Virus record (IMG/VR): IMGVR_UViG_3300028561_000005
Reading direction: 5' to 3' (one strand)
DNA length: 64,000 bases
DNA from: an uncultured virus (IMG/VR IMGVR_UViG_3300028561_000005)
Taxonomy: Duplodnaviria; Heunggongvirae; Uroviricota; Caudoviricetes
A program made the position numbers and the translations under genes. Positions 27,761 to 62,500 of this stretch are shown here, piece by piece. The notes under the pieces are model-generated. The model had not been told where the DNA came from and ran no database searches. It saw nothing but the letters and a program-made list of their open reading frames with translations. Position 1 is the first letter of the stretch; every line of letters begins with the position of its first letter.

Positions 27761-28049
27761 TATTCATCCGGAAATACAGGCAATCGTAGGTCTTTTTGAT
27801 GAAGTTTCTAGAACAACCTGTGTGAAGGATTATTCGATGTCTATTGACAGTAGATATCGTAAGAAGAACCATCTTCATACATACAACAAAAATGGTTTAT
27901 TAATGGAGTCATTTGCGACATGTAGTCTAAATGATTCCACTGATGAAATCGAACACGAGATACAGATATTCATCACAAAGGATGAGTATCTGTGTACATT
28001 CACAATCGAAGATAACGAAGCTAACAGACGTGCTATTAAGAAAATGTAA
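27735..28049 (+). CDS. hypothetical protein (start uncertain)
   Basis: ORF 27660-28049; ATG27735 overlaps end of upstream peptide; weak RBS. Confidence 0.65.
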   Translation: MGKHISLFDIHPEIQAIVGLFDEVSRTTCVKDYSMSIDSRYRKKNHLHTYNKNGLLMESFATCSLNDSTDEIEHEIQIFITKDEYLCTFTIEDNEANRRAIKKM

Positions 28050-28065
28050 CAAGGAGAGATTTACA

Positions 28066-28176
28066 ATGACTGAAGAAATTTTAAAATACATCAATGCTTT
28101 AGCAGCTTTCGCTGATTATGACATGGATGACGATGACGAAATTACAGAAGAAAATTCTACACACATTAGGAGGTAA
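28066..28176 (+). CDS. 36-aa acidic peptide
   Basis: AAGGAGA RBS; MTEEILKYINALAAFADYDMDDDDEITEENSTHIRR. Confidence 0.6.
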   Translation: MTEEILKYINALAAFADYDMDDDDEITEENSTHIRR

Positions 28177-28181
28177 TTTAT

Positions 28182-28808
28182 ATGAAAAGATACTTTTTAA
28201 ACGATAAACAATTCATGTTTGTTTCAGGCCATACATTCTACGTATCAACAGAAAACGGAAATGTCGAAGTTGACGGATTCATAATTAACGAAAATGAAGA
28301 TGACAACTTCATTACGTTATGTAACGGAGAATGGATAACATGTCCAAAATCAATCCCGTTAGACTGGCTGCAGGATGTGTTTATCTTTAAGCATCTTGAT
28401 GATGCTTTCGAGATATCCACAAACTTAAGAATGACTGTATCAACAGATTACAAGTGCAGCCCATCTGTATCAGCTGACAAGCTGAAGAAGATAATCAAAG
28501 ACCGTAGATATCTAAAAGAATTAGGCATCTTGCATCTGATTAATTATTACGATGATGCAGATGTTCTGGTTACCGAAGTTGGACACGGCATAAAGATACA
28601 TCATACCAGACATAACAGACGTTTTCCAACAAACGCGTCTGCCAAGTATCCGGATGATAATATCAGGTCAATCTTCAGATACAAGGACGATGTTTACATC
28701 TGCCCATCTGACAGAAATGCTAATGGCATTCTCAGGCTGGATGAAGATGGTACATTGTATATAGCAAGATTCGGAGAACTTGAAGAGGCAATCTTCAAGT
28801 TCATCTAA
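28182..28808 (+). CDS. hypothetical protein
   Basis: AGGAGGT RBS. Confidence 0.8.
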   Translation: MKRYFLNDKQFMFVSGHTFYVSTENGNVEVDGFIINENEDDNFITLCNGEWITCPKSIPLDWLQDVFIFKHLDDAFEISTNLRMTVSTDYKCSPSVSADKLKKIIKDRRYLKELGILHLINYYDDADVLVTEVGHGIKIHHTRHNRRFPTNASAKYPDDNIRSIFRYKDDVYICPSDRNANGILRLDEDGTLYIARFGELEEAIFKFI

Positions 28809-28817
28809 ACTACAAAT

Positions 28818-28868
28818 AAAAGAGCTTCGGGCTCTTTTGAGAAGGCTATGCCTTCTTTTTTTTTATTT
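28818..28868 (+). terminator. tandem terminators ending early cassette
   Basis: AAAAGAGC-TTCGG-GCTCTTTT, then AGAAGGC-TAT-GCCTTCT with long U tract. Confidence 0.85.
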
Positions 28869-28952
28869 CAATGTAACAATATTTGACATTGTGTATACTT
28901 TTGTTAAGAACAAGGGGTCTTTGTAGCAAAAGTAGTTAACTACGAAGTACCT

Positions 28953-28964
28953 AACATTTTCGTA
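28953..28964 (+). promoter_or_regulatory. late-type promoter AACA-N6-TA driving a non-coding element
   Basis: AACA TTTTCG TA; no RBS/ORF follows. Confidence 0.65.
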
Positions 28965-29225
28965 ATTTATACGAAAATAAGACTAAGATTAGTCTAAGTG
29001 TGACTGTGCCTTAGCTAAAGTCACACTAAGCTAACTGGTCTTAAATATTCTCTGTATAAAACGAAAATATATCCTAATAACCAAAATACCTTGACTCTAC
29101 TTGTTGACCAAGTAGAGTCTTATTTATTGTAGACAGGATCTGAATTAGAAGTATGAGTTTCATCGTATAGGACTACGCTAAGGCTACGTCCTATACTAAG
29201 GGACAGACCTTAAAGCCCTAGGGCA
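28964..29225 (+). ncRNA. candidate structured ncRNA with 8-bp kissing loops
   Basis: own promoter; hairpins 28966-29060, 29071-29139, 29165-29196, 29197-29212; loop GCCTTAGC (29008-29015) is the exact complement of loop GCTAAGGC (29177-29184). Confidence 0.6.
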
Positions 29226-29226
29226 A

Positions 29227-29238
29227 AACATTTTAGTA
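29227..29238 (+). promoter_or_regulatory. late-type promoter AACA-N6-TA
   Basis: AACA TTTTAG TA directly before AAAGGAGG. Confidence 0.7.
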
Positions 29239-29256
29239 ATAAAGGAGGAATGTGCT

Positions 29257-30474
29257 ATGACAGAACAGTATCGTTACTCTGCTGTAATGACATTCATGAA
29301 TAACAGAAGAGAAGCTCAGGAAATATCTATGGATGTAATCCAATTCATAGTTATAGACAAAGATTATGAAAACAATATTATGCCAGTTATAACTACATCT
29401 ATTTTATTAGATTCCAAACTTAGAGACAAAATGATTCTTGAAATGGATGACTCTATAGTATCTCTACAGATATACAAATTCAATAAAGACGAAGACGACA
29501 GAATAGGACAGACTATTCTGAATGATATCTTTGTTTACATGATACCAGGTGACATATCTCATTCACAGGATATGGACTACAAAGATGATATTGACGAAGA
29601 GAATCCACCAAGAATACCTACTACAGTTTATCTGATAAAGAGAGACTCAATAAACAACAATCGCCAGGTAATCAATTGTGTCAATCGATTTACTTACGAC
29701 AAGAATATTAAGAAACAGATATCGATGACAGATATGGTCATGAGAACTTCGGCATATCTCAGACCATTACTGTTAGAACCAATAACAAACAACAAATCGT
29801 TTGATGAGATTGTAATACCTCCATTATCTTCATTATCAGATTATGTCAACTATCTCAATGATAATATCTGTTCACTGTATCCAACAGGATACAGATTCTT
29901 TATGGACTTTGATACTAACTACATCATATCTAAGTCTGGTAAAAAGGTTGAGCACAAAGACCAGAATTATCACTCTGTAATCATAGATATTGGCGAAAAG
30001 ACCAATCTTAATTATGCTGTAGATGGAAACCTATATAACAGTGAAAATCGTTTCTATCACGTTCCAGTGTCAATTGCTATGGCAAAGTTCCAGCGTAACA
30101 TTACAGCGAAACACCTTGTTACTCAAGTGGCTTGTATCGATAGTTCAGGAACAGCTTTTTCAGAAGACGTATCAGAAACGTCTGCTAATATTAAAGAAAA
30201 GCTATCTATTATGCAATCCACAACTTCTAACTCTGGCATCATAGACAATGTCAAGAATGACGTCGTAAATGGCTCACTTGTAATAGACATTGTTAAATCA
30301 GATTTGGATGCCAGCATATTTACAATCAATAAAGAATATATAATAAACAATACTGAAGAGTATAAAGAATACGACGGCAGATATCTGATATGCTGTGCTA
30401 AACAGTTCTTTATCAAAGACGAAGATGGATTCGGTATGAATTCCCTGATGAGATTCAAAAAAATATCCCAGTAG
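29257..30474 (+). CDS. probable baseplate hub-like tail protein
   Basis: late promoter; RFFMDF and C-terminal YDGRYLI pattern reminiscent of gp27/gpD hubs. Confidence 0.45.
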   Translation: MTEQYRYSAVMTFMNNRREAQEISMDVIQFIVIDKDYENNIMPVITTSILLDSKLRDKMILEMDDSIVSLQIYKFNKDEDDRIGQTILNDIFVYMIPGDISHSQDMDYKDDIDEENPPRIPTTVYLIKRDSINNNRQVINCVNRFTYDKNIKKQISMTDMVMRTSAYLRPLLLEPITNNKSFDEIVIPPLSSLSDYVNYLNDNICSLYPTGYRFFMDFDTNYIISKSGKKVEHKDQNYHSVIIDIGEKTNLNYAVDGNLYNSENRFYHVPVSIAMAKFQRNITAKHLVTQVACIDSSGTAFSEDVSETSANIKEKLSIMQSTTSNSGIIDNVKNDVVNGSLVIDIVKSDLDASIFTINKEYIINNTEEYKEYDGRYLICCAKQFFIKDEDGFGMNSLMRFKKISQ

Positions 30475-30492
30475 GCATCTAGCCTACTGGGA
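30466..30492. terminator. bidirectional terminator
   Basis: TCCCAGTAGGC-ATCTA-GCCTACTGGGA. Confidence 0.85.
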
Positions 30493-30511
30493 ATTTTTTG
30501 TGTTTTACTTT

Positions 30512-41335: not shown

Positions 41336-42223
41336 TTAGTATGCGTAGAAAAGGTTTTCACCGATTGCCGGCGTATAAGTAATTTTTCTTACGAGTCTTG
41401 GGAACTGGGTTTCCGCTCTGAGTTCAGGCTGTGGCAGAACCTTGTATGGGGTATGGTTCCAAAGATCGACTTCGCCATTCAACAGGAAACAACGGTGTGA
41501 TAATTCCATTGAAAGATAACCTTCGATTATGGCATCATAGCATATTTCCGTAGGAGTTGTGCCAGTACGCTGCATAAAGCATGTACAATTGTTCAGGTCG
41601 TAATCCACAATAGCACCGGCAATGTAAAGCGGCATATAATCGTGGAATTTACCTGATAAGAATTCGCTGTTTAATGGACGTTCATTAACATTGTATGGCT
41701 TCATAAGCAATGGTTTATTGAAGTCAACCGGCTTTGGTGGTTCATTAGTTTTGAGACGATGCCAGGTCTCAGCAACCTTATACGCAATACGCTTAATATT
41801 GACCGGGAGATTGAGCTTGAATCCGAAGCTGAACAAATCAGCATTTCTTGCTTCATCTGTGATTGAGAATGACTTAGACACATTCGCATACATGTATTCA
41901 GTGTATACCGCAAGGTCTACACCGAATAAACCTTCTTCGGCTTTACGTTCTTCGAATACTTCTTTGTCCAGCTGGAATATATAATTCCAACCCATGGTTT
42001 CAACGAGAAGTTCGAACACCTTTGGTGTCGATGTGTTCCACATTGTCTTGAGATGTCCTACAGGTTCTTCAAAGTAATCTCTTGGATATCCGAAGAGACT
42101 TCTGTACTTCTTGTAGGCAATTGCAAGTCTTTCGATAAGCAGTTCATAGTCGGCTATTTCTGTCCAGAGTACCACTACTCTAGAATAGTCGGCTATCATT
42201 TCGTTTCTTGTTAATTCGATCAT
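41336..42223 (-). CDS. hypothetical protein (early-type cassette)
   Basis: start revised to MIELT with AAAGGAAGG RBS. Confidence 0.8.
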   Translation of the reverse strand: MIELTRNEMIADYSRVVVLWTEIADYELLIERLAIAYKKYRSLFGYPRDYFEEPVGHLKTMWNTSTPKVFELLVETMGWNYIFQLDKEVFEERKAEEGLFGVDLAVYTEYMYANVSKSFSITDEARNADLFSFGFKLNLPVNIKRIAYKVAETWHRLKTNEPPKPVDFNKPLLMKPYNVNERPLNSEFLSGKFHDYMPLYIAGAIVDYDLNNCTCFMQRTGTTPTEICYDAIIEGYLSMELSHRCFLLNGEVDLWNHTPYKVLPQPELRAETQFPRLVRKITYTPAIGENLFYAY

Positions 42224-42277
42224 GGTTTGTACCTTCCTTTCTATAATGACGGATGCCATTTACACCCGTTCATCGTT

Positions 42278-42285
42278 ATAATATA
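42278..42285 (-). promoter_or_regulatory. early-type promoter TATATTAT
   Basis: minus strand TATATATTATAACG. Confidence 0.6.
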
Positions 42286-42319
42286 TAAATAAAAAGTTGA
42301 TTGAATATGTAATCAGGTT

Positions 42320-42332
42320 AACATTTTGAGTA
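42320..42332 (+). promoter_or_regulatory. late-type promoter AACA-N7-TA for baseplate operon
   Basis: AACA TTTTGAG TA. Confidence 0.6.
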
Positions 42333-42353
42333 ATAACGGAGGGAGTGAATACT

Positions 42354-43400
42354 ATGAGTGATATACAAACAACAACCTCTTCTATGATGAAATTTGCATC
42401 CGGAAGAGAATCTTTTTCTGGTTCAGTTAGTGATTTAAGTGCACCCGGAGAACGTTCATCCAGGTTCAGCGAGTTTACTAACAATGCCATCAAAACTGAA
42501 AATATATTAACAGCTGACGACTTACATAAAGTAAGATTCAACCGTTTTGCTAAGGTGCCGATACTCGACCCTTGGAATCAGGCTGATATGACAAGAGACT
42601 ACGTGTTCTTCACGAAGCCTGACTTGAATATATTTGCTAGTTCGGGATTTATCAATCCGGTATTATCAAATACAGATTACTTCCCGGATATGATGGAAAC
42701 TCATCCTAATTCTCTGAAAGCTTTACAACAGACTTACATATCTGAAGATAACCCATACAACTACTTACTGTCAAACTACGTTTCAGCACCAATAGATTTT
42801 CCAGGTAAATCATCAGAGACTACACAGGGTAACCAGAACTTATACGGAATAAACACATTTTATCAGGACAACAACCGATCTAATGAATATGGATTCGACT
42901 TCAGCGTTGAATTCACTGATACGATGTATCATGACGTTTATACGTTCTTTGAAGCATATCAGGAGTATCGTAACTTACAGTACGAGATAGATTTATTCCC
43001 TCCAAAGGGAGAATATGCTAGAAGTAAGATACGTTACAAATCATTCTCTGTATACAAGATAACGGTTGACTCGGTCAACCGTATTTTATTCTACGGTAAG
43101 CACATTGGAATTGAACCGCTTAATACTGCGACAGATACAATAGATAGTGTAACCAGTGGAGAAGTTCCAAGATTTACTATAAGCTTCAAGGCTTTTCATT
43201 CTGTGGTTAATAAGCCATGGATACTTCAGGAGATTAATACAATTGCAACCAGAGCTGGATTTAGCGACGGTAAAATAATGAACGAGTATGACAAGTCAAC
43301 CGGCACCGCTAACAGAGAATGGCCGGCTGTACCAGTTATCTCCGCAGCAACCGGACAGGACGGAAGAAAAATATACTTATTGAAATGGGGGCGCATCTAA
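42354..43400 (+). CDS. baseplate/tail-tube-like protein
   Basis: YVFFTKPDL, FSVEFTD..VYTFF, GIEP pattern like tube-fold proteins; coupled to wedge gene. Confidence 0.5.
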   Translation: MSDIQTTTSSMMKFASGRESFSGSVSDLSAPGERSSRFSEFTNNAIKTENILTADDLHKVRFNRFAKVPILDPWNQADMTRDYVFFTKPDLNIFASSGFINPVLSNTDYFPDMMETHPNSLKALQQTYISEDNPYNYLLSNYVSAPIDFPGKSSETTQGNQNLYGINTFYQDNNRSNEYGFDFSVEFTDTMYHDVYTFFEAYQEYRNLQYEIDLFPPKGEYARSKIRYKSFSVYKITVDSVNRILFYGKHIGIEPLNTATDTIDSVTSGEVPRFTISFKAFHSVVNKPWILQEINTIATRAGFSDGKIMNEYDKSTGTANREWPAVPVISAATGQDGRKIYLLKWGRI

Positions 43401-50843: not shown

Positions 50844-51366
50844 TCTGTCCTCCTAAAGAGATTTCCATCATCTTCAGTATTCTATGAAATTCCAATGTCA
50901 TCTCCGCCATCTTAATCTGATATTCGTATGAAGTGAATACCATAGAACGAGAATACTTACTGCCTATATGTCCGGCGAATCCGCCTTTGTATTTGAATTT
51001 GGCTCCGATTGCGTAATAACTGTCATCATCCGATGGATAAAAGTGCGAATACTTAAAGTCGGAACCGTGTGAATCAAATACCGTGCTTAATGCCGTTATT
51101 AATTCACCATCGTCGCTAGGACGAATGAATATTTCAAATCCGAATTCTCCGCCGTCTTTATTATCATCCATTGTAAAACTGTTTACATAGAATCCCTCAT
51201 CCTCTAATGCCAAAATGAATGGTGAAATGAGCTCATTTCCTGTAACGTCTATCGTTCGTCTACCACGACAATATTCGCATGCAGGAATCATTGTGTTTTT
51301 CTTGAATCTACGCGGTTTATCACTCACGTCGAATAGTAATCCGCATTCTAAACAAATTCGTTTCAT
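50836..51366 (-). CDS. Zn-ribbon protein
   Basis: CLECG...CEYC; start revised to MKRIC (GGGAGG RBS). Confidence 0.75.
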   Translation of the reverse strand: MKRICLECGLLFDVSDKPRRFKKNTMIPACEYCRGRRTIDVTGNELISPFILALEDEGFYVNSFTMDDNKDGGEFGFEIFIRPSDDGELITALSTVFDSHGSDFKYSHFYPSDDDSYYAIGAKFKYKGGFAGHIGSKYSRSMVFTSYEYQIKMAEMTLEFHRILKMMEISLGGQNV

Positions 51367-51389
51367 AATATAACCTCCCACAAAATTTA

Positions 51390-51423
51390 ACACGTAAGGT
51401 GAATATCACCTTACGTGTAAGTT
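51390..51423 (-). promoter_or_regulatory. 13-bp hairpin overlapped by late-type promoter
   Basis: ACACGTAAGGTGA/TCACCTTACGTGT; minus strand AACT TACACG TA at 51412-51423. Confidence 0.55.
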
Positions 51424-51436
51424 AAGCGGTTTGTAT

Positions 51437-53503
51437 TTAGTAACGTCTGCTTAGTTTATTGGACAGATTCACGATTGTATTATCTGACATACGCTGCCAT
51501 AAGGTTGCAACGTTGGTTGGAATGTCAGTTATTCGTGAAACGATATTGAGGTCAGCATACATCTTAGCATAACGTGCTGCGTCAGGCACATTGTAGTTTA
51601 CACCACAAAGATTTGCCAGGAAATCCATTTCCGCAATGTTGGCCATCATACCGTATTTCATATTTGCCATGGACGTCATAGACATCTGGTTATACAAATT
51701 CTTTAATGTCATTTGGACTTCTACAACGGTCGGTAGCCCGTCTTTATTCCAACAGTTTTCTTTACCGATATTGACGTTCATACTTGTGATAATGCCCATA
51801 TCGATATTGAATATACCCTTGCAGAATCCCTTTACCAAGAAAGGAGATATATAACCATGTTTGTCTGACTGCCTTGGTGAAACTAATCCCCATGAATGAA
51901 TGAGAGGACATAATACATATTCCCAAATGGAGAAGTTATCTGGATCTGGAGCGACGAGTCTATATGTAATATTATAAGATTCACTACAGTCAGATTCGTT
52001 CCACAGTTCCGGGAACATGAGTTTACCACCGGCAATACATGTATTGATTCCACTAACAATCGTAGAGAATAATCCACCGCCAACAGGCAGCTTAGAAACG
52101 AAGTCGTTGAGCGAATCAATATCACCACTTAGCTGGTCTTTAATTTCGTCGAATTTAAGTCCCATTGTTGAAGACGATAAACCTAAGATATACTGAAGTT
52201 CTCTCGCCTGGTCAGACAATGCATTAACCGACGAAGCTAATTGAGACTGAGTCGTTGAGTTAGAGAACTCACGAGATGTGGAGAGTTCGGCATTAGCATA
52301 GATTGGAATACTGCCTCGGTAGTATGCGACTCGTTGCATATCTTCTACCTTATCCCAGAATGATAATTTACCGTCAGCTCCGAGCATCTCATCAGAACCT
52401 ACCTCAACGTCTTCAGAATCAAGATAGTTCCATGCCCAGTTGTATGAGTATGGTTTCATTGTTCCTCTTACCGAGTCATATATAGGATTCTCAAGTTGTA
52501 AGAATTCCGCCATAGCACGGCATGCCGGATTGACATATGAAAAGTACTTCTCATAACAGTGTTCAACTGAATAGAGTTTACCCGAATAGTCATCCATTAA
52601 AGAGTCCAATGCTGTTGTATCGGCACTGTCAGCCAATGCCTTTACATATTTTTCAAGGCCCTGTTTTCTATCTGAACCAGACAGAGACGGTAAGAATACC
52701 GGCTCGCATGGAGTCAGATAAACCAGTGGCATCTTTGAAGCGATAGATTTAAGATAATCAGTACCCATATTCTGAATACTGAAAGCATCCACACTGCTGT
52801 TATATCCTAAGCGTAAATCTGTGGATGGTAAAAACTGTGGAGGTACGCCAATAATACCTCTAAGTTTTGATATCTGGTGCATATTCTGTAATTCTGACGC
52901 CGTAAATGATGTGCTCATAGCAGCAATTACTTCAGCATACTTTTCGAAGTCAGGACTATATCCTAAATCTTCGTCTGTAAGTAAACCGGCTTCCGTAACA
53001 TCTACGCCAACGGCTGCGTCTAAAGAATCAACAACGGCGTCATCTCCTGGAGATGAGGTTCCGTATGCTGGTGAAGCATAACCAGTTATGGCAGTATATG
53101 TATACTGTCTAGTGAGCGAATCAACCTTAGCTGTTCTAGGGTTGTCATTAGGGTCTATACATCCTTCTATTGTTTTACAAGAAGATGCACCAACTTCAAC
53201 AACAAGAGCAACGTGGTCTGCGTCGCCAGTGAAGTCGTAGTCAAAATATATTAAGTCTCCGACTTTAGGTTTATAACCTGAAGTACGTGGATGAAACAGA
53301 TTTTTTGCTTTGAACCATTCCATCTGACTCGTGCAGTGCGTATCTTTAGGAATACATCCACCGTTACCTGTCTTTTGGGCAATAGTTGAAATAAATGAAG
53401 CACACCATGAATAACAACCGCCACCGAATATTTGGGTGTATTCCTGGTATCCATGTCCCATGCCTTTCTTAGCCTCGGCAACTATGGCAGCGACACTTCC
53501 CAT
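51437..53503 (-). CDS. CHAP-domain baseplate/tail protein (virion-associated peptidoglycan hydrolase)
   Basis: WCASF, PKVGDLIYFD, HVALV, TIEG; C-terminal tube-like region (FPELW..SYNITY, MGIITSM, GLPTVVEV). Confidence 0.75.
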   Translation of the reverse strand: MGSVAAIVAEAKKGMGHGYQEYTQIFGGGCYSWCASFISTIAQKTGNGGCIPKDTHCTSQMEWFKAKNLFHPRTSGYKPKVGDLIYFDYDFTGDADHVALVVEVGASSCKTIEGCIDPNDNPRTAKVDSLTRQYTYTAITGYASPAYGTSSPGDDAVVDSLDAAVGVDVTEAGLLTDEDLGYSPDFEKYAEVIAAMSTSFTASELQNMHQISKLRGIIGVPPQFLPSTDLRLGYNSSVDAFSIQNMGTDYLKSIASKMPLVYLTPCEPVFLPSLSGSDRKQGLEKYVKALADSADTTALDSLMDDYSGKLYSVEHCYEKYFSYVNPACRAMAEFLQLENPIYDSVRGTMKPYSYNWAWNYLDSEDVEVGSDEMLGADGKLSFWDKVEDMQRVAYYRGSIPIYANAELSTSREFSNSTTQSQLASSVNALSDQARELQYILGLSSSTMGLKFDEIKDQLSGDIDSLNDFVSKLPVGGGLFSTIVSGINTCIAGGKLMFPELWNESDCSESYNITYRLVAPDPDNFSIWEYVLCPLIHSWGLVSPRQSDKHGYISPFLVKGFCKGIFNIDMGIITSMNVNIGKENCWNKDGLPTVVEVQMTLKNLYNQMSMTSMANMKYGMMANIAEMDFLANLCGVNYNVPDAARYAKMYADLNIVSRITDIPTNVATLWQRMSDNTIVNLSNKLSRRY

Positions 53504-53595: not shown

Positions 53596-56500
53596 TTACT
53601 TCTTAGCTATTCTGTAGACAGCGTCGATGATTTCGGAATTATTCATATCATTGAACTGTGCGTTCATAGCGTTGAGTCCCTGACGTGTCATACCGTTAGA
53701 TGCGAGTAAAGCCTTTGAAAGCTCTGCCATCACATTAGCAGTATTAGTGTCATTAGACTTGCCGCTCTTTGTAGATTTTGAATTGTTTCCTGAACCTGTC
53801 AGCTGACATGCGTTTGAAACTGAGAGTTTTGTAACTGCTGCAACGACATCCTGAAGTTTAGCAGTGTTGCCACTGATTTCACTAAGGAGTTTAACAACAG
53901 CGAGAAGAATTTCGTTAGTAGCGTTTCCGTTTGTAGGACCACCTGTATTCTTAGTGTTTGAACCTATTCTAGCACCTGGCTCATACTTAGAACCGGTTGA
54001 ACCTGTTCCTGAAGCATTTGCCGCAGCCTTAGCTTCAGCACGTTTAACAGCGTCTACTGCACGTGTAACAGCATTTGTTGAAACCTTCTTGAAGTTTGCT
54101 GTACCCGAAGTTCTTGAAGAATCGCATGAACCGCTTGGGCGTTTACCGTTAGCAGCCTGTCTAACAAGAGCCTTATCGACAAATCCCTTACCACTCTTCT
54201 TGTTAGGAGCTGGAGGTCCAACTAGTGTTGAAGATGTGGAAGAACTTGTTGTGTTGGTTGTTGTCTTTGTATTGTTTGGAAGTAATGGTCCCATTACATC
54301 ATTCGATGATGGTACAATTCCTGCACGCTGAGCTGCAGATTTGATATAATCACTATAGTCGTACTGGTTAGGGTCTACGTCGGCATGCCACATATCACTA
54401 GGCTTGTTAACCTGATAATGTAAGTGAGGACCTGTAGATTCACCCGTCGTACCACAGTAACCAACCAGTGTACCACGGAATACTTCGTCACCTTCATGAA
54501 CTGGAGGAAGCTGACACTGATGACCGAAGATGTGATAGTAGCCATGAGTATCCTGAACGATTGTAAGGTTGCCGTAGCCACCTGTATTCCATCCTGCGAA
54601 TACTACTGTACCATCAACTGGAGAATATAATTTGTTGCCTTCTGGAGCGGCATAGTCGATACCACCATGGTCCGGACGTTCTGGTCTTCTATATCCAGAA
54701 GATACAGATGAACCTTCGAGTGTTGTTAAGAACCATGCGTCGGAACCATTTTCGGATACAGATGTTAAGTAGTCGTCGTCTCCGAGAGCACCTACACCTG
54801 CGGCTGCATTACCAGTTGTTGCTGATGCTGCACCGAATACTGCGTCATATAAACCGCCATAGAGCTTTCTCATTACCTTAGTAACGTAAGCACCAAGCTG
54901 TCCTATGAATGTGTTATCTACTGTTGTTGTTCCAGCGTCTCCGGCTACAGATGAACCATCTATAGACGCATTGGTTGAGAATTCATCAAAGATTGTTCCT
55001 GCCTGATAATTGTTGAGGTCGATATTTGCGAGTTTAGCTCCGGTATCTTTGATACGATTTACCCATGCTCCTGAATACTGGCTTCCGCATGTAGCCCACC
55101 ACGAGCTTGTAGCCATACGGTTAACGACATCATTGATTTCTTCTTTTCCACCCTTATGAGCTGGTCTCCAGCCATCTGCCCATCCAGTATGAACACCGGT
55201 GTTATAGATATCTGCTGGAACTATCATTGAAAGTGGGTTCTGAAGAATTCCCGAATTATAGAGTTTAAGTGGATGTGACATGTTATTCTCTTTATAGAGT
55301 TTGAAAGCCAGATTATCTTGAACGTCTTTAGCAATACTCTCGTATTTTTCAAGAACCTTAGACAATTTATCAGCTTCACTCTGAGAAATAGCACTTGTTG
55401 CACGATTTGCAATGTTTAAGAGATATGCCTTGTCATCCGCATCAGTAACGCGGGCAGCCATTCCACGAAGAACGTCTGCTGCAAGTGTAGCATGGAAACC
55501 GATTGTACCGATTGAAATTCCACTTCCGTTATCGTTAGGACATACAGCATGATATCCGCCGGCGGTGCCTGCTTCTCTGGATACAATACATTCGTGAAGA
55601 ATTGTGTAAAGATTCTTTTCCTGCTGTGGTGTGAGAGCTGGACCTGTACCTGATTTAACACCCTTACGATATGACAATGGAGTAATACCTCTGCCACTAC
55701 GTTTTCCGCGTCCTGCACTAATAGCGTAGATAGAATCTCTGATAGTGTCATTTGCGTCATAAATTCTATCGCCGAATGGATCTTCAGGGTCCTGAACAAC
55801 TATCTTGTTGTTCTTCATTCCTGTTGCAAGTACATAGTGAGCATTCTGATTTCCGAACGGAGTAGTTCCTCTACCAGACTGTCCCATGAGGATTACATCT
55901 TCACCATTAGCGAGTCTACGTCTTAAGTCTGAACGTGTTCCAACGTTTGCTGTACGTACGCCATTTTTGCCGAGATAGTCTCCAAAGAATTCTGGGAATG
56001 TACCAGCGTTTCTTTCCTTATAGCCAAGGGCATTTCTTGCTGCGTCTCTTACGTCGTAATTCAGTCCACGTCTAGCGAGAACTTCTGAAGCAACTACAGG
56101 GCCACAACCTGAGTCAGCGATTGACTGGAAATTGCTGTCACCAGAGATATTGAATCTATCATCATAATCTCTCTGATAGAGATGTGGGTTTGCTCCACCC
56201 GAATACTGTGACTTGATGTATGATGCCTGTTCGTCATCCAGTGGTTTAGGTGGGATTAAGTATTTAAGTTTACGATTTTTGAATTCTGAACCCTTACCTG
56301 ACTTCTTCTTACCGCCAAAAAGATTACTGAAGAATGTAGCAATCTTGCCTTTCTTCTTGGTTGTTGTTGAAGACTTAGAGGTAGTGGTGCTTGTTTTCTG
56401 AATAGGTTTTGGTGTTGTCATATCGTGCATTGACTCGTGACTTACACTGTAACCTGTACCAGAAACTTCATTGTTTGTCAGCTGTGTTGCCGATGAAGCT

Positions 56501-59500
56501 TCAGTGTCGAATACGGAATTAATAGCGTCCTGAATGATTGTGAGTGGTGATGAAATTGCACGTCTCATGAACTCGCTTAATTTGTATAAGCTTGCTGCGA
56601 ATGTGGTATCATTACCTGTGTTGATATACCAGAAACGCTTATCGTTTATCTTAATCTTACCTTCATCAATCTGACTTGTTGCAGACTTATTCATACTTTC
56701 GTATCTTGCCATCTGTTCAGTAATATTCTTACCACCAGATATTGAGTTAATAAGATTGTCAATAAAGTTTCCGCCAGTAGGCATAAGCATATTTAACGGA
56801 GATAGTTTGTTGTTTGCGTATGCGTTTGTTGCTAAAGCTTCATCTATTGCTGCATCTACGGCATCTACGCCAAATGGGTCTAATCCATCGTTAACCTTTG
56901 CATTAGTTTTAACCTTTGTCTTTGATGCAGTTGATTCAACTTCTTTATCTGCCTTAGTGAACCAGCCCTTAACTGTAGATTTGATCTTCTGCCATTCTGT
57001 TGGGTTAACAGCACGGTTAAAGTCTTCAACAGTTTCGAAATCTGTTCCGTTTTCGGCATTATACATGTCAATTGCTTCGAGTGCATTATCCTGTTTAGTT
57101 TTGATTGCCTTAGCGAAGTCTGCACCTAAGAAACTGAATAAGTCGAGAAGTACGTTTGCAATGAAGTCTGCAGGAATAATTGAGCAGCAAAGACCTGATA
57201 TAACGTTTGTTAAACCTGCGAAGAATCTCTCGAATACGGATACCTCTTCGTCTACTATACCAAGTACGTTACGTGCATTATCCCAGCCTGCGATGAAGTC
57301 TAATACGGCCTGAGCTATAGCCAGTATTACGGTTGCTTTACCAAGAACCTTAGCAAGAACTTCTACAGATTCCATACCTAATTTCTTAGCAAGATTTGCT
57401 GCGAGTTTCTCACCAGTCTTAGCAAGTTTTTCGCCTAAAGCCTTCTTAGACATTCCGACCTTTTTAGCAAGTGGTGCAATCTTTTCAACAATCTTTGAAT
57501 TGCCAAACAGTTTGGTTAATACCTCTTTAAGGAATGTACCAACCTTTGCAAGAAGTTTTGCTTTCTTGTCTGCACCTGCTGCAGTTCTAACTGCTGCTGT
57601 TGCAGCTGTTTCGACAGCGTCTTCTGCGACATCGGTTGCAATATTAGCCGCAGCTCTGCCTGATGCCTTAAGAGTCCAGTCGCGGAATTTACGTCCCACA
57701 TTTGCTGGAGCATTAATTACATTCATAGCACCTTCGCCGAGACGGCCAACGATGCCAATTCCAGGAACCTTACTTACACCCTTGAAGATACCAGCACCAG
57801 CTTTTCCTGCTATATTACCAAGTGCTCCCATACCAGCAGCGTTATTAAGGAATGAACGTCCTGCCATCTGGAATAAAGATTTACCCTTATATCCAGTAGC
57901 ATTAGTCTGCTGCACGTCAGCATTTCTGATAGACTGGAATGATGCGTTACCCGCGATTTCTTCTGCGAAGTTTTCGTCAAGATACTGTGTGCCTATTCCT
58001 CTATTAGCCAGATAGTTCTGATAGTTAGCATTGTTTATAGCTACACCTTCAGCATTTTCAGCTAAAGGACCGAATACTGAGCTCTTTGCTACGTCTGCAA
58101 ACGCGTTGGAGTTTGAATTGTCGTATGCGTCGCGTTTAAGTTTGCTTTCGTTTATTTCTGCACCAGTAGTACCTGTTGCTCTACGTGCTGAACTTGTGAT
58201 GCTGTTGCCAGCCTTTTTATTGCCGCTCTTACCAAATCCAACCTTAGATGAAATTGTTTTAGCTCCGGACTTGATAAGTTCCCAAGCACCAAGCAATGCA
58301 CCTTCGATTATTTCTGGAAGACGTTCAATAAGGCCATCCATTACTGTAGGTAATACATCATCTCTGAGGGTTGTGATTCCTGTTGACCAGAGGTCTCCAA
58401 GAACACTCTTAACCTTTGGAAGAGCTGTATCTTCTACCCATGGAATTACGGTATTATTGATACCATTTACAACGCCCGAAGCAATACCTCCAGTGTAATT
58501 GCCAGAAGAATCCTTTTCGCCAACTAACCAAGGTACAAGTTTATCTTTGCAGAAAGGAATTACCCACTTAGCCATAGCACCAACGAAGAGTGGCACGCCA
58601 ACCGCGAGTTTACCAATACCAAATACCTTACCGAAGAATTTCTTAATCTTTCCGAAGAAAGATTCATCTTCGTCTTCACTGTCATTCTTAGGAATAATAA
58701 AGTCAGCAATAGCAGTAATCTTATTCTTCATAGTCTGGAAGATTCCAACCTTTTCAGCCTTGTCTTTCTTAGCCTCAGCTTCTTCCTTAGAACCTGCTTC
58801 AGGTCTGTTACGTCTAGGGTCATTAGGAAGTAATACGTCATCAGCAAATTCTGAGAGTCCGTCATTTGCTTCAGCATTAGTAGGAATCTGTCTGAGTATA
58901 GCTTCAAGCTCATCTGTGGTCATAGCCTTAAGAGCCTTAACTGAATACTTAGGGTCATTCTTAAAGAAACGAGTCTCAGAAATCTTCTTAATTAATTCGT
59001 CTCTACGTTCATCCTGATTGAAGTTTGAGCTTAATCTATCAAATACAGAGACATGATTTCTATCAAGTAAATTCTGGATACCCATTCTCATTGACTCATG
59101 GTTTTCTTCAGATGCGAATCTGTTTAATACCGGAATCTTTGATGCTACTGTACGTACACCTTCATTGAAACGTCCAACTGCTCTTTCCATTCCATTGTTT
59201 GAAGCACTCCAGATATCTTTTGCACGGAATTCTTTAAACTTAGACTTGTTGTTTGAAAGTGTTGAGATATACCTCTTAAGACCGACAGAATCGTTCTTAA
59301 ACTGGTTAAGTATATATACGTTTTCTTCAGAAAGAACCTTACCGAGTTTAGCAGATTCTCTCTTAGTGAGTGTACAGATTGTGTCCAGAAGTTCCTTTTT
59401 GAATACGAATTTCTTCTTACCTGTAAATTTGAAGTTAGCAATGTTATAGACTTTATTCTTGTCAGTTTCGCTTAATTCAAAGAAGTCTGTTAAAGCTTCA

Positions 59501-62500
59501 AGATCAATGAACCAACCTTTATCGCCCATGTCATTGAGTAATCTAATTACATCTTCAGAAGATACATCGAATACTAATGGGAACTTCTGTGGTGTTATCT
59601 TAGAATACAGCTTAAACTTTCTGAGTTTAGCTACATGTGTATCTAAGAATCTCTGCTGCTCTCTGTCATATACACCGTCTGCCGCATCAAGTGCTGCATC
59701 GAGGATATGCTGACGATTAGCAGATGAATCTTCGAATGTGTTCTGTATGTTAGAGATATCAATAGCCTGATTCATATTAACACCGTTGCCGTTATTGTAA
59801 ACCGCATTGTCATTAATATTACGGAAGTTACCGATACCGTTCATGAACTTAGTCACATTCTTAAGAGCTGCAGCGAAGTCTGCAAATGCATTTGTTGATA
59901 CTTCTACAGCTTCAGCATTTCTTGCGAATATGTCTGCCTGTAAATCAGCTGAACGTGATTCAGCTTCACCCTGTGAACCATATTTAATTGAAGCAGCGTT
60001 CTTAGCATTGATTTCAGCCTTAAGAGAATCCATGATAGCTCTCTTCTGCTTAGCTGATTTCTTATTGAATTTCTTAATTCCTAATTTAGAAGCATATTCA
60101 GCAACCTTTTCGTCAGTAGCCTTATATGTATCTCTCTTAGCAAGAATTTCATCACGCTGTTTGAGTAACTGCTGAACCTCTGCTATGAAAGCATCAGCTT
60201 CTTCTTTACTCATACGCTGTCCGTCTACGGTCTTAGTGTTTCTGATAAGATCAAATGCCTTTTCGTACTTACCCTGTTCAATAGCTCTGTCGATAGAACG
60301 TGCAGCATTACCGAAACGTGTTCTAAACTTGTCAGAAATCTTCTTGCCAATAGCTCTAGAGTTATTACCAATTTCTTTGTTAAGTCCACGTTCTCCATCA
60401 ATATTGAAAGCAATAGAGTTTTTGATTAATTCAAGGTCTTCAACAGAAGCTGTTTCCGAATAAGCTGCGAGGTTCTTATCATATTCAGCATATTTATCTC
60501 CAACGAGGAATTTGCTCTTATGTCTCTGACGGAATTCGTTTCTTTCGGCTGCAGTCATATATGAACCAGCTCTACCGTTTTTGATACCGGCAGTCTTAGC
60601 CATATTACCGAGTGTTCCGAATAAACCCTTACCGATTAATTTAAATGGTAATCTTATTACGCTTGTAGCTTTCTTAAGAATACCTGTAGTGAGTTTCTTA
60701 ATAGGGTCAGCCACATAATCTCTTACGAGATTAGCTAACGGTACAGAAATGTGTTCTTTGAATGTGTCTGCAATCATGTTTGGAATGAATGTAAACATAT
60801 TCTTCAGTTCAGTTGTAATTGGAGCCATTGCGTCCTTGATTGGATCTAAGAAATCCTCGTGGAGGTTTTCCTTGATATCTTCAAAGAGATCTAAACCGAA
60901 GTTCTTGAGAGGTGTTACGAGATTGTCTTTTAACGCTCCAACAACACCGCCATCACGTGTTCCGTCTTCATTCTTTTCGCCGAGTAATGCAGACTTAAAC
61001 TTTTCTGTTGTTGTAAGGAATCCTGCACCGCCGCCGAGGAGAGCACCACCGAGTAAACCGAATGGTCCCATTAAAGCTCCAGCTGCAGCGCCAATAGCTA
61101 CATTAGGGAAAGCTGCCTTGATAGCCTTACGGTTATCTTCTGATAACAGCATTCCGTCGCCGAATAATCTGTCCTGTACGAACTTAGTATTCTTGAGGAA
61201 TCCTAAACCTGCACCTACGATAGCACCACCAACTGGTCCAAGTGGAGTCAAGAGACCGGCTACTGAACCGAGTAATCCACCTGTCTTCATGCTTGGTAAA
61301 GCCTGCTGTACAGATTCCTTAATTAATCCATCATTAGCATGTATCGGGTTACCATTTTCATCATAGTCAATGATACTTCCGAATAATGCCTGATTGAGTA
61401 CCTTATTAGACTGGATAAGCTGTGAACCCATTCCGATACCTGCACCAAGTAATGGGTTTCCAACGAGTAATCCAGCGATGCCACCGATTGCACCCTTAGC
61501 AAGTCCCTGGTATCCAATACCCTTAGCGATTTCTCCAACACGTGTGCCAGAGAGACCATCATTTGCTCTAGCATTAGTTAACAGTCTACGTTTGAAGTTC
61601 TTTTCGGCTGCGGCCTGTTTTGCTATTGTTGCATCGTCTGCTGGATTTATAACTGTAGATTTTCCAGGAATAGAATATATTCCCATCTTAGGTACAGTAT
61701 AAACTGAACCACCAGAAGTGATAATCTTTTCGTTAGGTGACATAATAGAGAGCATGCTCTTTGAAGACTTGTTCTTGCCACCTCTAGCGAACATAGAAGC
61801 GTTTGTGATATCGTTATAACGAGTTCTTGTTTCGGAATCAATGTCCCCAAACTCATTATATACGTAGTTGCCGTCAGCGATTCTTTCAAATCTGGCTTTT
61901 AACTCAGGGTCCTGTACAGATGCAGCAAATTGTTTCATAAGCTCTTTATTTCGTGAATACTGAGCTAAGAACTGAGCTGTCTTTGGATCAAGGTTTGCAC
62001 CGTATTCAGCAGAGAATAAATCGTAAGCATACTTGTCACGTTCTTCTCTAATCTTATCACGGTCAGCTCTTGAACGATACTGTCCGTTAGCATCACGATA
62101 TACAGGTGAAGATTCGTCATCAGTAGCAGTATTCATCATTGAATCAAACGAATTCTCTCCATATAAAGAATACTGTGAGTTTAATCTGTCATATCTGTCT
62201 GAACGTTCAGAGTCTAAACGTCCTACAACAGAACTGTCGATTGTGAATCTCTTAAGCATTGCCTCTACGTCAGAGTTAAACTTAGCGTTAGCACGGTTTA
62301 CTCTTGACTGAGCTCTAGCCTTGAGACTTTTAGCCTGTGGAATATAAGTACCACGCATTTCTTCAGCTTTACCTGTTAACTCATCACGTTCAGCAATGAG
62401 CTGTGCAAGTTCTTCTGGAGAATAGTTTGCATGTGGGTCAGTTATCTTGTCATGTAGGGCAACAGCCTGAAGATTGTACTGTTCGTACTGCTGCTGGAAC

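Follow-up and report, generated by a model that had tools for sequence, protein, structure and literature searches.

The uncultured virus record IMGVR_UViG_3300028561_000005 (Caudoviricetes) contains, within the 64,000-nt stretch of DNA analyzed here (hereinafter the window), a non-coding element at positions 28953-29225 that a sequence-only reading had taken for an RNA locus specifying a late, structured transcript of ~260 nt with an architecture resembling that of the packaging RNA (pRNA) of phage phi29. The element lies between a 208-aa gene and a 405-aa gene, in an interval of 448 nt (28809-29256) that, among open reading frames (ORFs) of at least 100 aa, is indeed the largest ORF-free gap of the window, the next ones being 352, 332 and 321 nt long. 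Judging by its genes, the window comes from an uncultivated jumbo phage related to the Bacillus phages AR9 and PBS1. For the product of the 405-aa gene adjoining the element, 8 matching records at 26-33% identity were obtained, all of them hypothetical proteins from AR9, PBS1 or other Bacillus phages related to these. Further products encoded in the window include a family-B DNA polymerase, a T4-like portal and a CHAP-domain protein, and strong AAGGAGG sites are present at its gene starts. A blastn search of 28000-30500 against 50,697 phage records yielded no match, and tRNA or tmRNA genes were not found in the window. In jumbo phages of the AR9/PBS1 type, transcription depends on split, sigma-less RNA polymerases that the phages themselves encode and, to our knowledge, almost nothing has been reported on regulation at the RNA level in this group.

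On the plus strand, the element begins with the motif AACA-TTTTCG-TA (AACATTTTCGTA, 28953-28964; hereinafter P1), which fits the AR9 late-promoter consensus and places the predicted start of transcription at A28964. As given in the AR9 transcriptome report, this consensus is AACA-N6-T-A/G, with the last base as the start site, and 94 late start sites fit it (PMC5312081, Table S3 part 1). The earlier claim of a perfect late promoter with +1 at 28964 stands as far as the motif is concerned, and its use in transcription is a prediction. Within the window, 42 matches to AACA-N6-TA are present on the two strands together, and the late-promoter motif is found 13-52 nt upstream of 8 of the 46 listed gene starts in a count that also allowed TT as the last two bases; the assignment of P1 as a promoter, which is based on the motif match, appears plausible.

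Downstream of P1, three hairpins could be delineated. The first, H1 (28966-29060, plus strand), is a long imperfect hairpin identified by folding and covariation, in which TTTATAC (28966-28972) pairs with GTATAAA (29054-29060) at the base and the apical stem AGTGTGACT/AGTCACACT encloses a 13-nt loop, GTGCCTTAGCTAA. The second, H2 (29093-29129, plus strand), flagged by a terminator scan, consists of an 11-bp stem, GACTCTACTTG/CAAGTAGAGTC (29093-29119), and the tail TTATTTATTG. The third, H3 (29165-29196, plus strand), apparent from the sequence and the fold, has a 9-bp stem, GTATAGGAC/GTCCTATAC, which starts one base away from the position implied earlier, and a 14-nt loop, TACGCTAAGGCTAC, that includes the octamer GCTAAGGC; it is followed by TAAGG/CCTTA and then GCCCTAGGGC. 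P1, the three hairpins and the small palindromes listed in the sequence-only reading are all present in the sequence.

The best-supported view of the element, derived from sequence comparison, is that it represents one copy of a lineage-specific non-coding cassette of ~350 bp that is present about four times per genome. The nearest record, G001, is a 183.7-kb IMG/VR contig with an estimated completeness of 75% that has 49% of sampled words in common with the window. When 28810-29256 was used as the BLAST query against this contig, three copies were detected, namely the ortholog of the window copy at 51039-51479 (plus strand, 99% identical), a second copy at 106178-106536 (plus strand, 76% identical; the 106k type), and a partial match at ~165921-166162 (minus strand; the 166k type). 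A covariance model built from the promoter and H1 finds exactly these three copies in G001. Pattern scans additionally recovered orthologs of the 106k and 166k types together with a fourth type, L139, all from one other metagenome. The L139 type is located upstream of a gene that matches the PHROG for the RNA polymerase beta subunit (E = 6.5e-30); this gene is absent from both the window and G001, and the fourth copy is therefore probably located in the part of the genome that they do not cover. Contigs from four further public DNA runs contain the same four flank types, often breaking at the repeat, and no new type. The element is thus not a single locus.

The distribution of the cassette is narrow. 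The H1 covariance model has no match in AR9 or in G002 or G003, and the distant relatives searched include one of 265 kb (98% complete) and one of 79 kb, and finds no second copy in the window. Five DNA patterns searched in IMG/VR hit two contigs only once a single 14-mer is set aside, the matches of that 14-mer (at least 120 loci) being presumed to be due to chance save for the G001 copy already listed; among the five, an exact 22-mer from the 5′ part of the cassette is confined to the same two contigs. One pattern searched in the JGI metagenomes hit three contigs of one metagenome. Two matches of one pattern in GTDB genomes were rejected as copies, given that their flanks lack similarity, and were taken as chance 21-mers in apparently coding DNA. 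Protein-guided searches with the 405-aa gene and the polymerase-beta-like gene revealed no new copy. The syntenic gap preceding the homologous gene of AR9 is only 37 nt long, and two relatives whose proteins are 44-45% identical have just a terminator and TACA-N6-TA, without the element, in front of the polymerase gene. Taken together, the model, pattern and synteny searches confine the cassette, on present data, to one narrow lineage.

Comparison of the copies also delimits the cassette. Its conserved 5′ block (28869-28925, plus strand) comprises a palindrome of 21-23 bp (28869-28891), a small hairpin, CTTTTGTT-AAG-AACAAGGG (28898-28916), and TCTTTGT; the sequence TTTTGTTAAGAACAAGGGGTCTTT within this block is identical in three of the four copy types (window, 106k and L139) and absent from the 166k type. 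The 32-nt block TAACATTTTCGTAATTTATACGAAAATAAGAC at P1 is invariant in all copies, two of which were found with a pattern taken from that very block. The 3′ edge is marked by the conserved tail GGGACAGACCTT (29200-29211, plus strand), of which GGGACAGACCT is kept in three of the four types and again missing from the 166k type. Two features that contribute to the architecture of the window copy fall outside the repeat. Upstream, two tandem hairpins with T-runs at 28818-28857, where the sequence-only reading had correctly noted tandem terminators, would end the 208-aa gene; the terminator scan flags 28839-28857 on the plus strand, which reads AAAAGAGCTTCGGGCTCTTTT, and 28838-28818 on the minus strand, and this stretch is not conserved in the paralogs. 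Downstream, a second late-promoter motif, P2 (AACATTTTAGTA, 29227-29238, plus strand), is located 19 nt before the ATG of the 405-aa gene, in agreement with the proposal of a separate promoter for this gene; the motif is missing from the 106k and 166k copies, whereas in the L139 type the corresponding position is occupied by AACT-N6-TA.

Each of the four types has the same orientation as the gene downstream, the start codon of which follows H3 by ~60-110 nt in our own placement. The downstream genes are unrelated to one another; one is homologous to a gene for a hypothetical protein of AR9, another type precedes a thymidylate-kinase-like block, and a further one precedes the RNA-polymerase-beta-like gene. 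No ORF with a Shine-Dalgarno site is common to the four copy types, as anticipated for a non-coding gap, and indels of 1-2 nt separate the copies inside H1. In a scan for sigma70-type promoters, no site conserved across the copies of the cassette was detected. As a separate observation, the 106k copy on contig L002 combines the conserved tail GGGACA with a perfect TATAAT 17 nt later, just after H3 (1848-1876); this is a 10/12 match to a sigma70-type promoter, and the TATAAT is not found in the window copy.

The structural part of the earlier proposal, at least with respect to H1 and H3, is borne out by covariation. Orthologous copies, at 97-99% identity, have diverged too little for a test of selection. 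The covariation analysis was performed on an alignment of seven sequences representing the four types, with 41 pairs from the base, middle and apex of H1 and from H3. Over these pairs, 96.2% of the alignment cells are paired, and both sides have changed in 11 of the 41 pairs, a count reached by none of 500 shuffles and compared with 0-2 in controls with slid partners. The changes are distributed over the H1 helices 21-31/73-82 (2 of 10 pairs) and 32-47/53-69 (5 of 15 pairs) and over H3, where 4 of the 9 pairs have changed on both sides, 100% of the cells are paired, and the 166k type contains a two-base insertion on each arm. The seven pairs of the H1 base stem are all invariant and, as they never vary, are uninformative either way. 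These comparisons support the conclusion that H1 and H3 are hairpins kept by compensatory change. Such changes also favor hairpins over a double-stranded operator because a single protein would be unable to track differing changes at several sites.

The sequence-only reading further proposed that the loops of H1 and H3 kiss. In its developed form, this explanation posits an RNA of ~260 nt in which the H1 loop GCCUUAGC pairs with the H3 loop GCUAAGGC, yielding either a kissing pseudoknot within one molecule or multimers joined hand in hand, as phi29 pRNA forms them, in which transcripts of the four copies might possibly be combined. The underlying observation is correct: GCTAAGGC occurs at 29177-29184 on the plus strand and at 29008-29015 on the minus strand, such that the two loop octamers are exact reverse complements, and the complementarity is also exact in the ortholog and in the 106k copy of G001. 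At least six core pairs can still form in the 166k type, and eight with a one-base bulge in the L139 type, which has an extra A in the H1 loop; an A to G change in a 166-type copy from another metagenome yields a U-G wobble; standard pairs make up 94.6% of the cells of the proposed helix; and the apex of H1 in the window closes by two pairs only, leaving the loop open. The chance estimate of 1 in 1500 offered in support is arithmetically right for two random loops, but the two octamers share the pattern GC-NNNN-GC and, being conserved motifs, do not qualify as random sequences.

Comparison of the copies, however, does not support the pairing between the loops. None of the eight pairs of the proposed helix has changed on both sides, two show one-sided change, and broken cells are present in two. 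In the 166k type, H1 has ACCTTAGT while H3 keeps GCTAAGGC, with a G to A and a C to T that have no answering change, and in the 106-type copy of a 44.6-kb contig, H3 has GCTTAGGC, which introduces an uncompensated U-U mismatch in the middle of the helix opposite an unchanged H1. The H3 loop of the 166-type copy L138 has drifted by three substitutions, with none in the stem. Moreover, the bases that flank CTTA in the H1 loop covary with each other (ATGC/GCAT, ACAC/GTGT, GTGC/GCAC), with both-side changes in three of four pairs, and H1 accordingly extends to a CTTA tetraloop in three of the four types, the window type (GTGC/GCTA) being the imperfect one; the remaining loop of 4-5 nt is too small for an 8-bp kiss. 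A terminator-like hairpin, H2, is located between H1 and H3 in all four types. The complementarity itself is real, and its 6-nt core is mostly kept, but the sequences give no indication of selection for pairing, and we consider the kissing explanation quite improbable.

Nor is the analogy with pRNA supported. A cmscan search of 28000-30000 against Rfam (E up to 10) produced five weak matches, none to pRNA and none credible, and the whole window has no match to Rfam at gathering scores, bacterial 6S RNA and other known small RNAs included. What the pRNA of phi29 and the element have in common is their similar size, their origin as non-coding phage sequences, a construction from hairpins and a pair of mutually complementary loops; the differences are that the present element matches no Rfam model, shows no covariation between the loops and has a terminator-like hairpin between them. 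Furthermore, phi29 pRNA is specified by a single gene, transcribed from an early promoter, beside the packaging genes at the end of a small, 19-kb genome, in contrast to the late promoter, several copies and jumbo, myovirus-type genome found here. The phi29 RNA, moreover, binds to the connector of the prohead and is required for packaging.

Matches to the octamer elsewhere were considered as well. In the window, GCTAAGGC has 10 matches against 0.76 expected (3583, 9505, 17366, 20936, 29008, 29177, 36232, 39625, 54026 and 57107), but a dispersed binding site was rejected as the explanation: the eight matches outside the element are all on coding strands and in frame, reading GCT-AAG-GCx (Ala-Lys-Ala), which makes them an effect of codon usage and not related sites. 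The hexamer CTAAGG occurs 66 times in the window, compared with 21 expected, following gene orientation.

H2 is conserved in position rather than in sequence. The hairpin differs in each type (GACTCTACTTG..., ATCCAGTCCTGA..., CCGTAGGC... and TCCAGTCTTGA...), but always contains GC and is followed by a T-rich tail, and one compensatory change, C-G to T-A, separates the 106k and L139 types. The terminator scan flags H2 on the sense strand in all four types, and on the antisense strand in one of the four (the window copy only), and in the four types the H2 stem ends at 156, 156, 148 and 155 nt from the predicted start. H2 therefore reads as a weak intrinsic terminator predicted to end an RNA of ~160 nt. 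For AR9, strong termination by the phage polymerases at predicted intrinsic terminators is described (PMC5312081). Given that H2 is terminator-like in all four types, the primary product is more likely to be ~160 nt long, with H3 outside of it, than the ~260 nt originally envisaged. A conserved 5′ domain followed at a fixed distance by a terminator of free sequence is the pattern that would be expected of a discrete small RNA or of an attenuating leader.

Folding by itself does not identify the active strand. The 263-nt stretch folds at -77.8 kcal/mol, compared with -51.35 ± 4.68 for 200 shuffled sequences (z = -5.65), and the reverse strand folds at -81.6 (z = -6.16), so the folding signal alone can tell neither the strand nor RNA from DNA. 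An explanation that makes use of this symmetry is a DNA-level element whose hairpins would form in single-stranded or supercoiled DNA and would serve the initiation of replication (a promoter plus primer RNA), recombination or packaging, with the promoter as only one part; origins of phage T4, which combine a promoter with a primer RNA, offer an architectural resemblance and nothing further. In addition to the equally good folding of both strands, it would account for an imperfect palindrome of 113 bp (28956-29068; a reverse-strand self-match at 71% identity) that contains H1 and whose outer arms, ATTTTCGT/ACGAAAAT, involve promoter bases upstream of the predicted +1, for the inverted arrangement of the same octamer in H1 and H3, and for the separation of the G001 copies by 55 and 60 kb. 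The AR9 polymerase, which recognizes its promoter on the template strand in single-stranded form and is able to use single-stranded DNA as a template (PMC5449584), would be compatible with such an element. The GC skew also changes sign at 28-30 kb; it is positive at 17-27 kb and negative at 30-42 kb, with the genes of both intervals on the minus strand, so that gene orientation does not explain the change; since it is not repeated at the other two copies of G001, an origin or terminus was not deduced from it and the change is not counted as support.

Several features point to the RNA instead. The T-rich tails after H2 are found on the sense strand in all four types and on the other strand in only one, which indicates transcription in one direction, and in the consensus H1, G-U cells number 14 on the sense strand versus 3 on the other by our own count. 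Iterons or an AT-rich unwinding stretch are not evident in the element, and a late promoter would be an unusual driver of an origin. A sense-strand RNA is favored by the promoter motif, by T-tails confined largely to one strand, by the constant spacing between the start and H2, and by the excess of G-U pairs in H1, and we regard the DNA-level explanation as unlikely. Side by side with this, the copies of G001 at 51.2, 106.3 and 166.1 kb are evenly spaced, which, with three points, may be due to chance, and each of them heads a short gene block oriented unlike the surrounding genes.

The repetition of the cassette invites comparison with the promoter-early stem-loop (PeSL) cassettes of T4-type phages, which are ~100 bp long, number ~50 per genome, carry sigma70-like early promoters and are clustered in hyperplastic regions (PMC2839356). 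Both are repeated intergenic phage elements that combine a promoter with terminator-type stem-loops and precede genes of varied or unknown function, and in both the sequence conservation between copies could drive recombination (PMC2839356, PMC4122927). PeSLs, to the extent that these reports describe them, are devoid of a long transcribed structured part, in contrast to the ~160-nt hairpin-rich segment predicted to be transcribed here and the further conserved hairpin beyond it; the cassette also differs in its length of ~350 bp, in its AR9-type late promoter and in its numbers, with three copies in 183.7 kb plus the fourth type and none elsewhere in the 64-kb window. The corresponding explanation would be a PeSL-like regulatory or selfish cassette, that is, a portable terminator-promoter-insulator spread by homologous recombination, with an RNA that has no function of its own. 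The repeated intergenic terminator-like hairpins with a promoter at the head of gene blocks, and the unrelated genes downstream, are what such a module would produce, and the short gap with a promoter motif before the same polymerase gene in the distant relatives, together with the 37-nt gap of AR9, makes the cassette look like a recent insertion. On the other hand, the cassette is three to four times as long as a PeSL, with ~4 copies compared with ~50 (PMC2839356), and the pairing of H1 and H3 is kept by compensatory change, H1 being ~90% identical between copies that are 76% identical overall. This conservation and compensation suggest selection on the hairpins, although gene conversion could mimic it, and a cassette of this kind without a functional RNA seems rather improbable to us.

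We therefore favor, as the somewhat more probable account, a late-promoter cassette that gives rise to a hairpin RNA of ~160 nt and, upon read-through, to a structured leader for the next gene, with transcription, termination at H2 and function deduced from the sequence. The non-virion RNA polymerase would start at A28964 from the AR9-type late promoter, transcribe the long hairpin H1, and then mostly stop at the weak terminator H2, releasing the ~160-nt structured RNA, and in the fraction of transcripts that reads through, H3 would become part of a structured 5′ leader for the gene or operon that follows in the same orientation. The most likely role would be that of a cis-acting, attenuating leader by which the amount or the timing of expression of the following genes is adjusted, with a trans-acting small RNA as a close second.

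A number of observations weigh against this account. The phage is known only from metagenomes, in which its DNA occurs in soil, wastewater and gut samples and among whose listed runs none of RNA was found, and its transcription is predicted. The tails of H2 are interrupted T-runs, weaker than the clear terminators that follow ordinary genes of the window, H3 is conserved despite lying beyond H2, and a pairing with the arms of H2 that could act as an antiterminator and is common to the four types was not found. In the window copy, P2 adjoins the 405-aa gene, which makes read-through unnecessary there. The opposite strand folds equally well or better in four of six copies, so that a role in single-stranded DNA or a cruciform fits the covariation equally, and the first 8 nt of the palindrome at 28956-29068 precede the predicted start, an extension for which an RNA with its 5′ end at 28964 does not account. 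Finally, the four types are paralogs of one lineage, and the covariation counts accordingly rest on few events.

For the favored late-promoter cassette, architectural parallels are also found in lambdoid phages. In the PR′-6S-tR′ region of lambda, which precedes the late genes, a promoter gives rise to a short non-coding RNA that ends at an intrinsic terminator, an arrangement predicted here in all four types. The put-type cis-acting antitermination RNAs of HK022 have a conserved structure near the 5′ end and several copies per genome, as is the case for putL/putR and nutL/nutR. The differences are that no similarity of sequence or to Rfam models was detected, that no Q- or N-like factor was identified, that the polymerase would be the non-canonical one of a jumbo phage, that the terminator of the window copy is followed by a second promoter, and that a shared antiterminator pairing was not found. 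As with the T4 origins and phi29 pRNA, the resemblance appears to be architectural only and does not support family membership.

The late transcription units of AR9 itself offer a further comparison, with the same promoter consensus, long 5′ untranslated regions (UTRs) and tandem late promoters; late 5′ UTRs of up to 491 nt are described, and for some genes the primary late start is accompanied by a secondary one located 150-170 nt further upstream (PMC5312081). The difference is that the H1 model matches nothing in the AR9 genome, where the syntenic gap is 37 nt. The same report presents a predicted motif of unknown meaning in late UTRs (PMC5312081, Fig. S3). In the literature on jumbo-phage small RNAs and AR9 promoters, as far as it was accessible, no description of such an element was found; the late-UTR motif of Fig. 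S3 in PMC5312081, which lies outside this comparison, might bear on novelty. A gap elsewhere in the window (42260-42344), between the divergent genes at 41336-42259 (minus strand) and 42345-43400 (plus strand), contains TTTATATATTAT-AACGAT-G, which is close to the AR9 early promoter consensus AAATATATATTAT-N6-G, and on the other strand AACATTTTGAGTAA, a late-like motif with a 7-nt spacer. With both an early-like and a late-like motif, the phage seems to share the two promoter classes of AR9.

A conserved, multi-copy late-promoter hairpin unit bounded by a terminator would be a concrete candidate for RNA-based regulation, or for a small RNA family, in jumbo phages, and its four paralogs with compensatory changes constitute ready-made natural variants; the value of the candidate is limited for now by the fact that the phage is uncultivated. 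If the element is only a mobile promoter-terminator module, the PeSL idea would extend from T4-type phages to a very different group. A more far-reaching and decidedly speculative proposal is that the cassette specifies late RNAs of a novel jumbo-phage family, whose targets would be the non-canonical multisubunit RNA polymerase of the phage itself or other RNAs of the family. H1 might make termination at H2 conditional in cis, in which case no attenuation or antitermination RNA would have preceded it for a jumbo-phage polymerase; alternatively, the H1 loop of the released ~160-nt RNA might dock on the H3 loop of a leader produced by read-through at any one of the four loci. Should either conditional termination or loop docking be true, four operons, including that of an RNA-polymerase subunit gene, would belong to one RNA-controlled late regulon.

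Three minor observations concern the read coverage of the cassette and genes at some distance from it. In the sequencing run X10, the summed contig depth over 28953-28986 is ~320, compared with ~19 in the single-copy flanks and ~60 over the rest of H1 and over H3; this excess could be due to repeat unitigs that were collapsed and multiply counted, or to extra partial copies elsewhere in the genome. The last 10 kb of the window are occupied by one ORF of 3455 aa (53596-63963, minus strand). In two distant relatives (L142, 901-1200, and L143, 901-1400), the RNA-polymerase-beta-like gene is preceded by a gene that consists of numerous short coding repeats in tandem, with units around GGTAATGCTAGAGTATATGATAAT in L142 and asparagine-rich units in L143.

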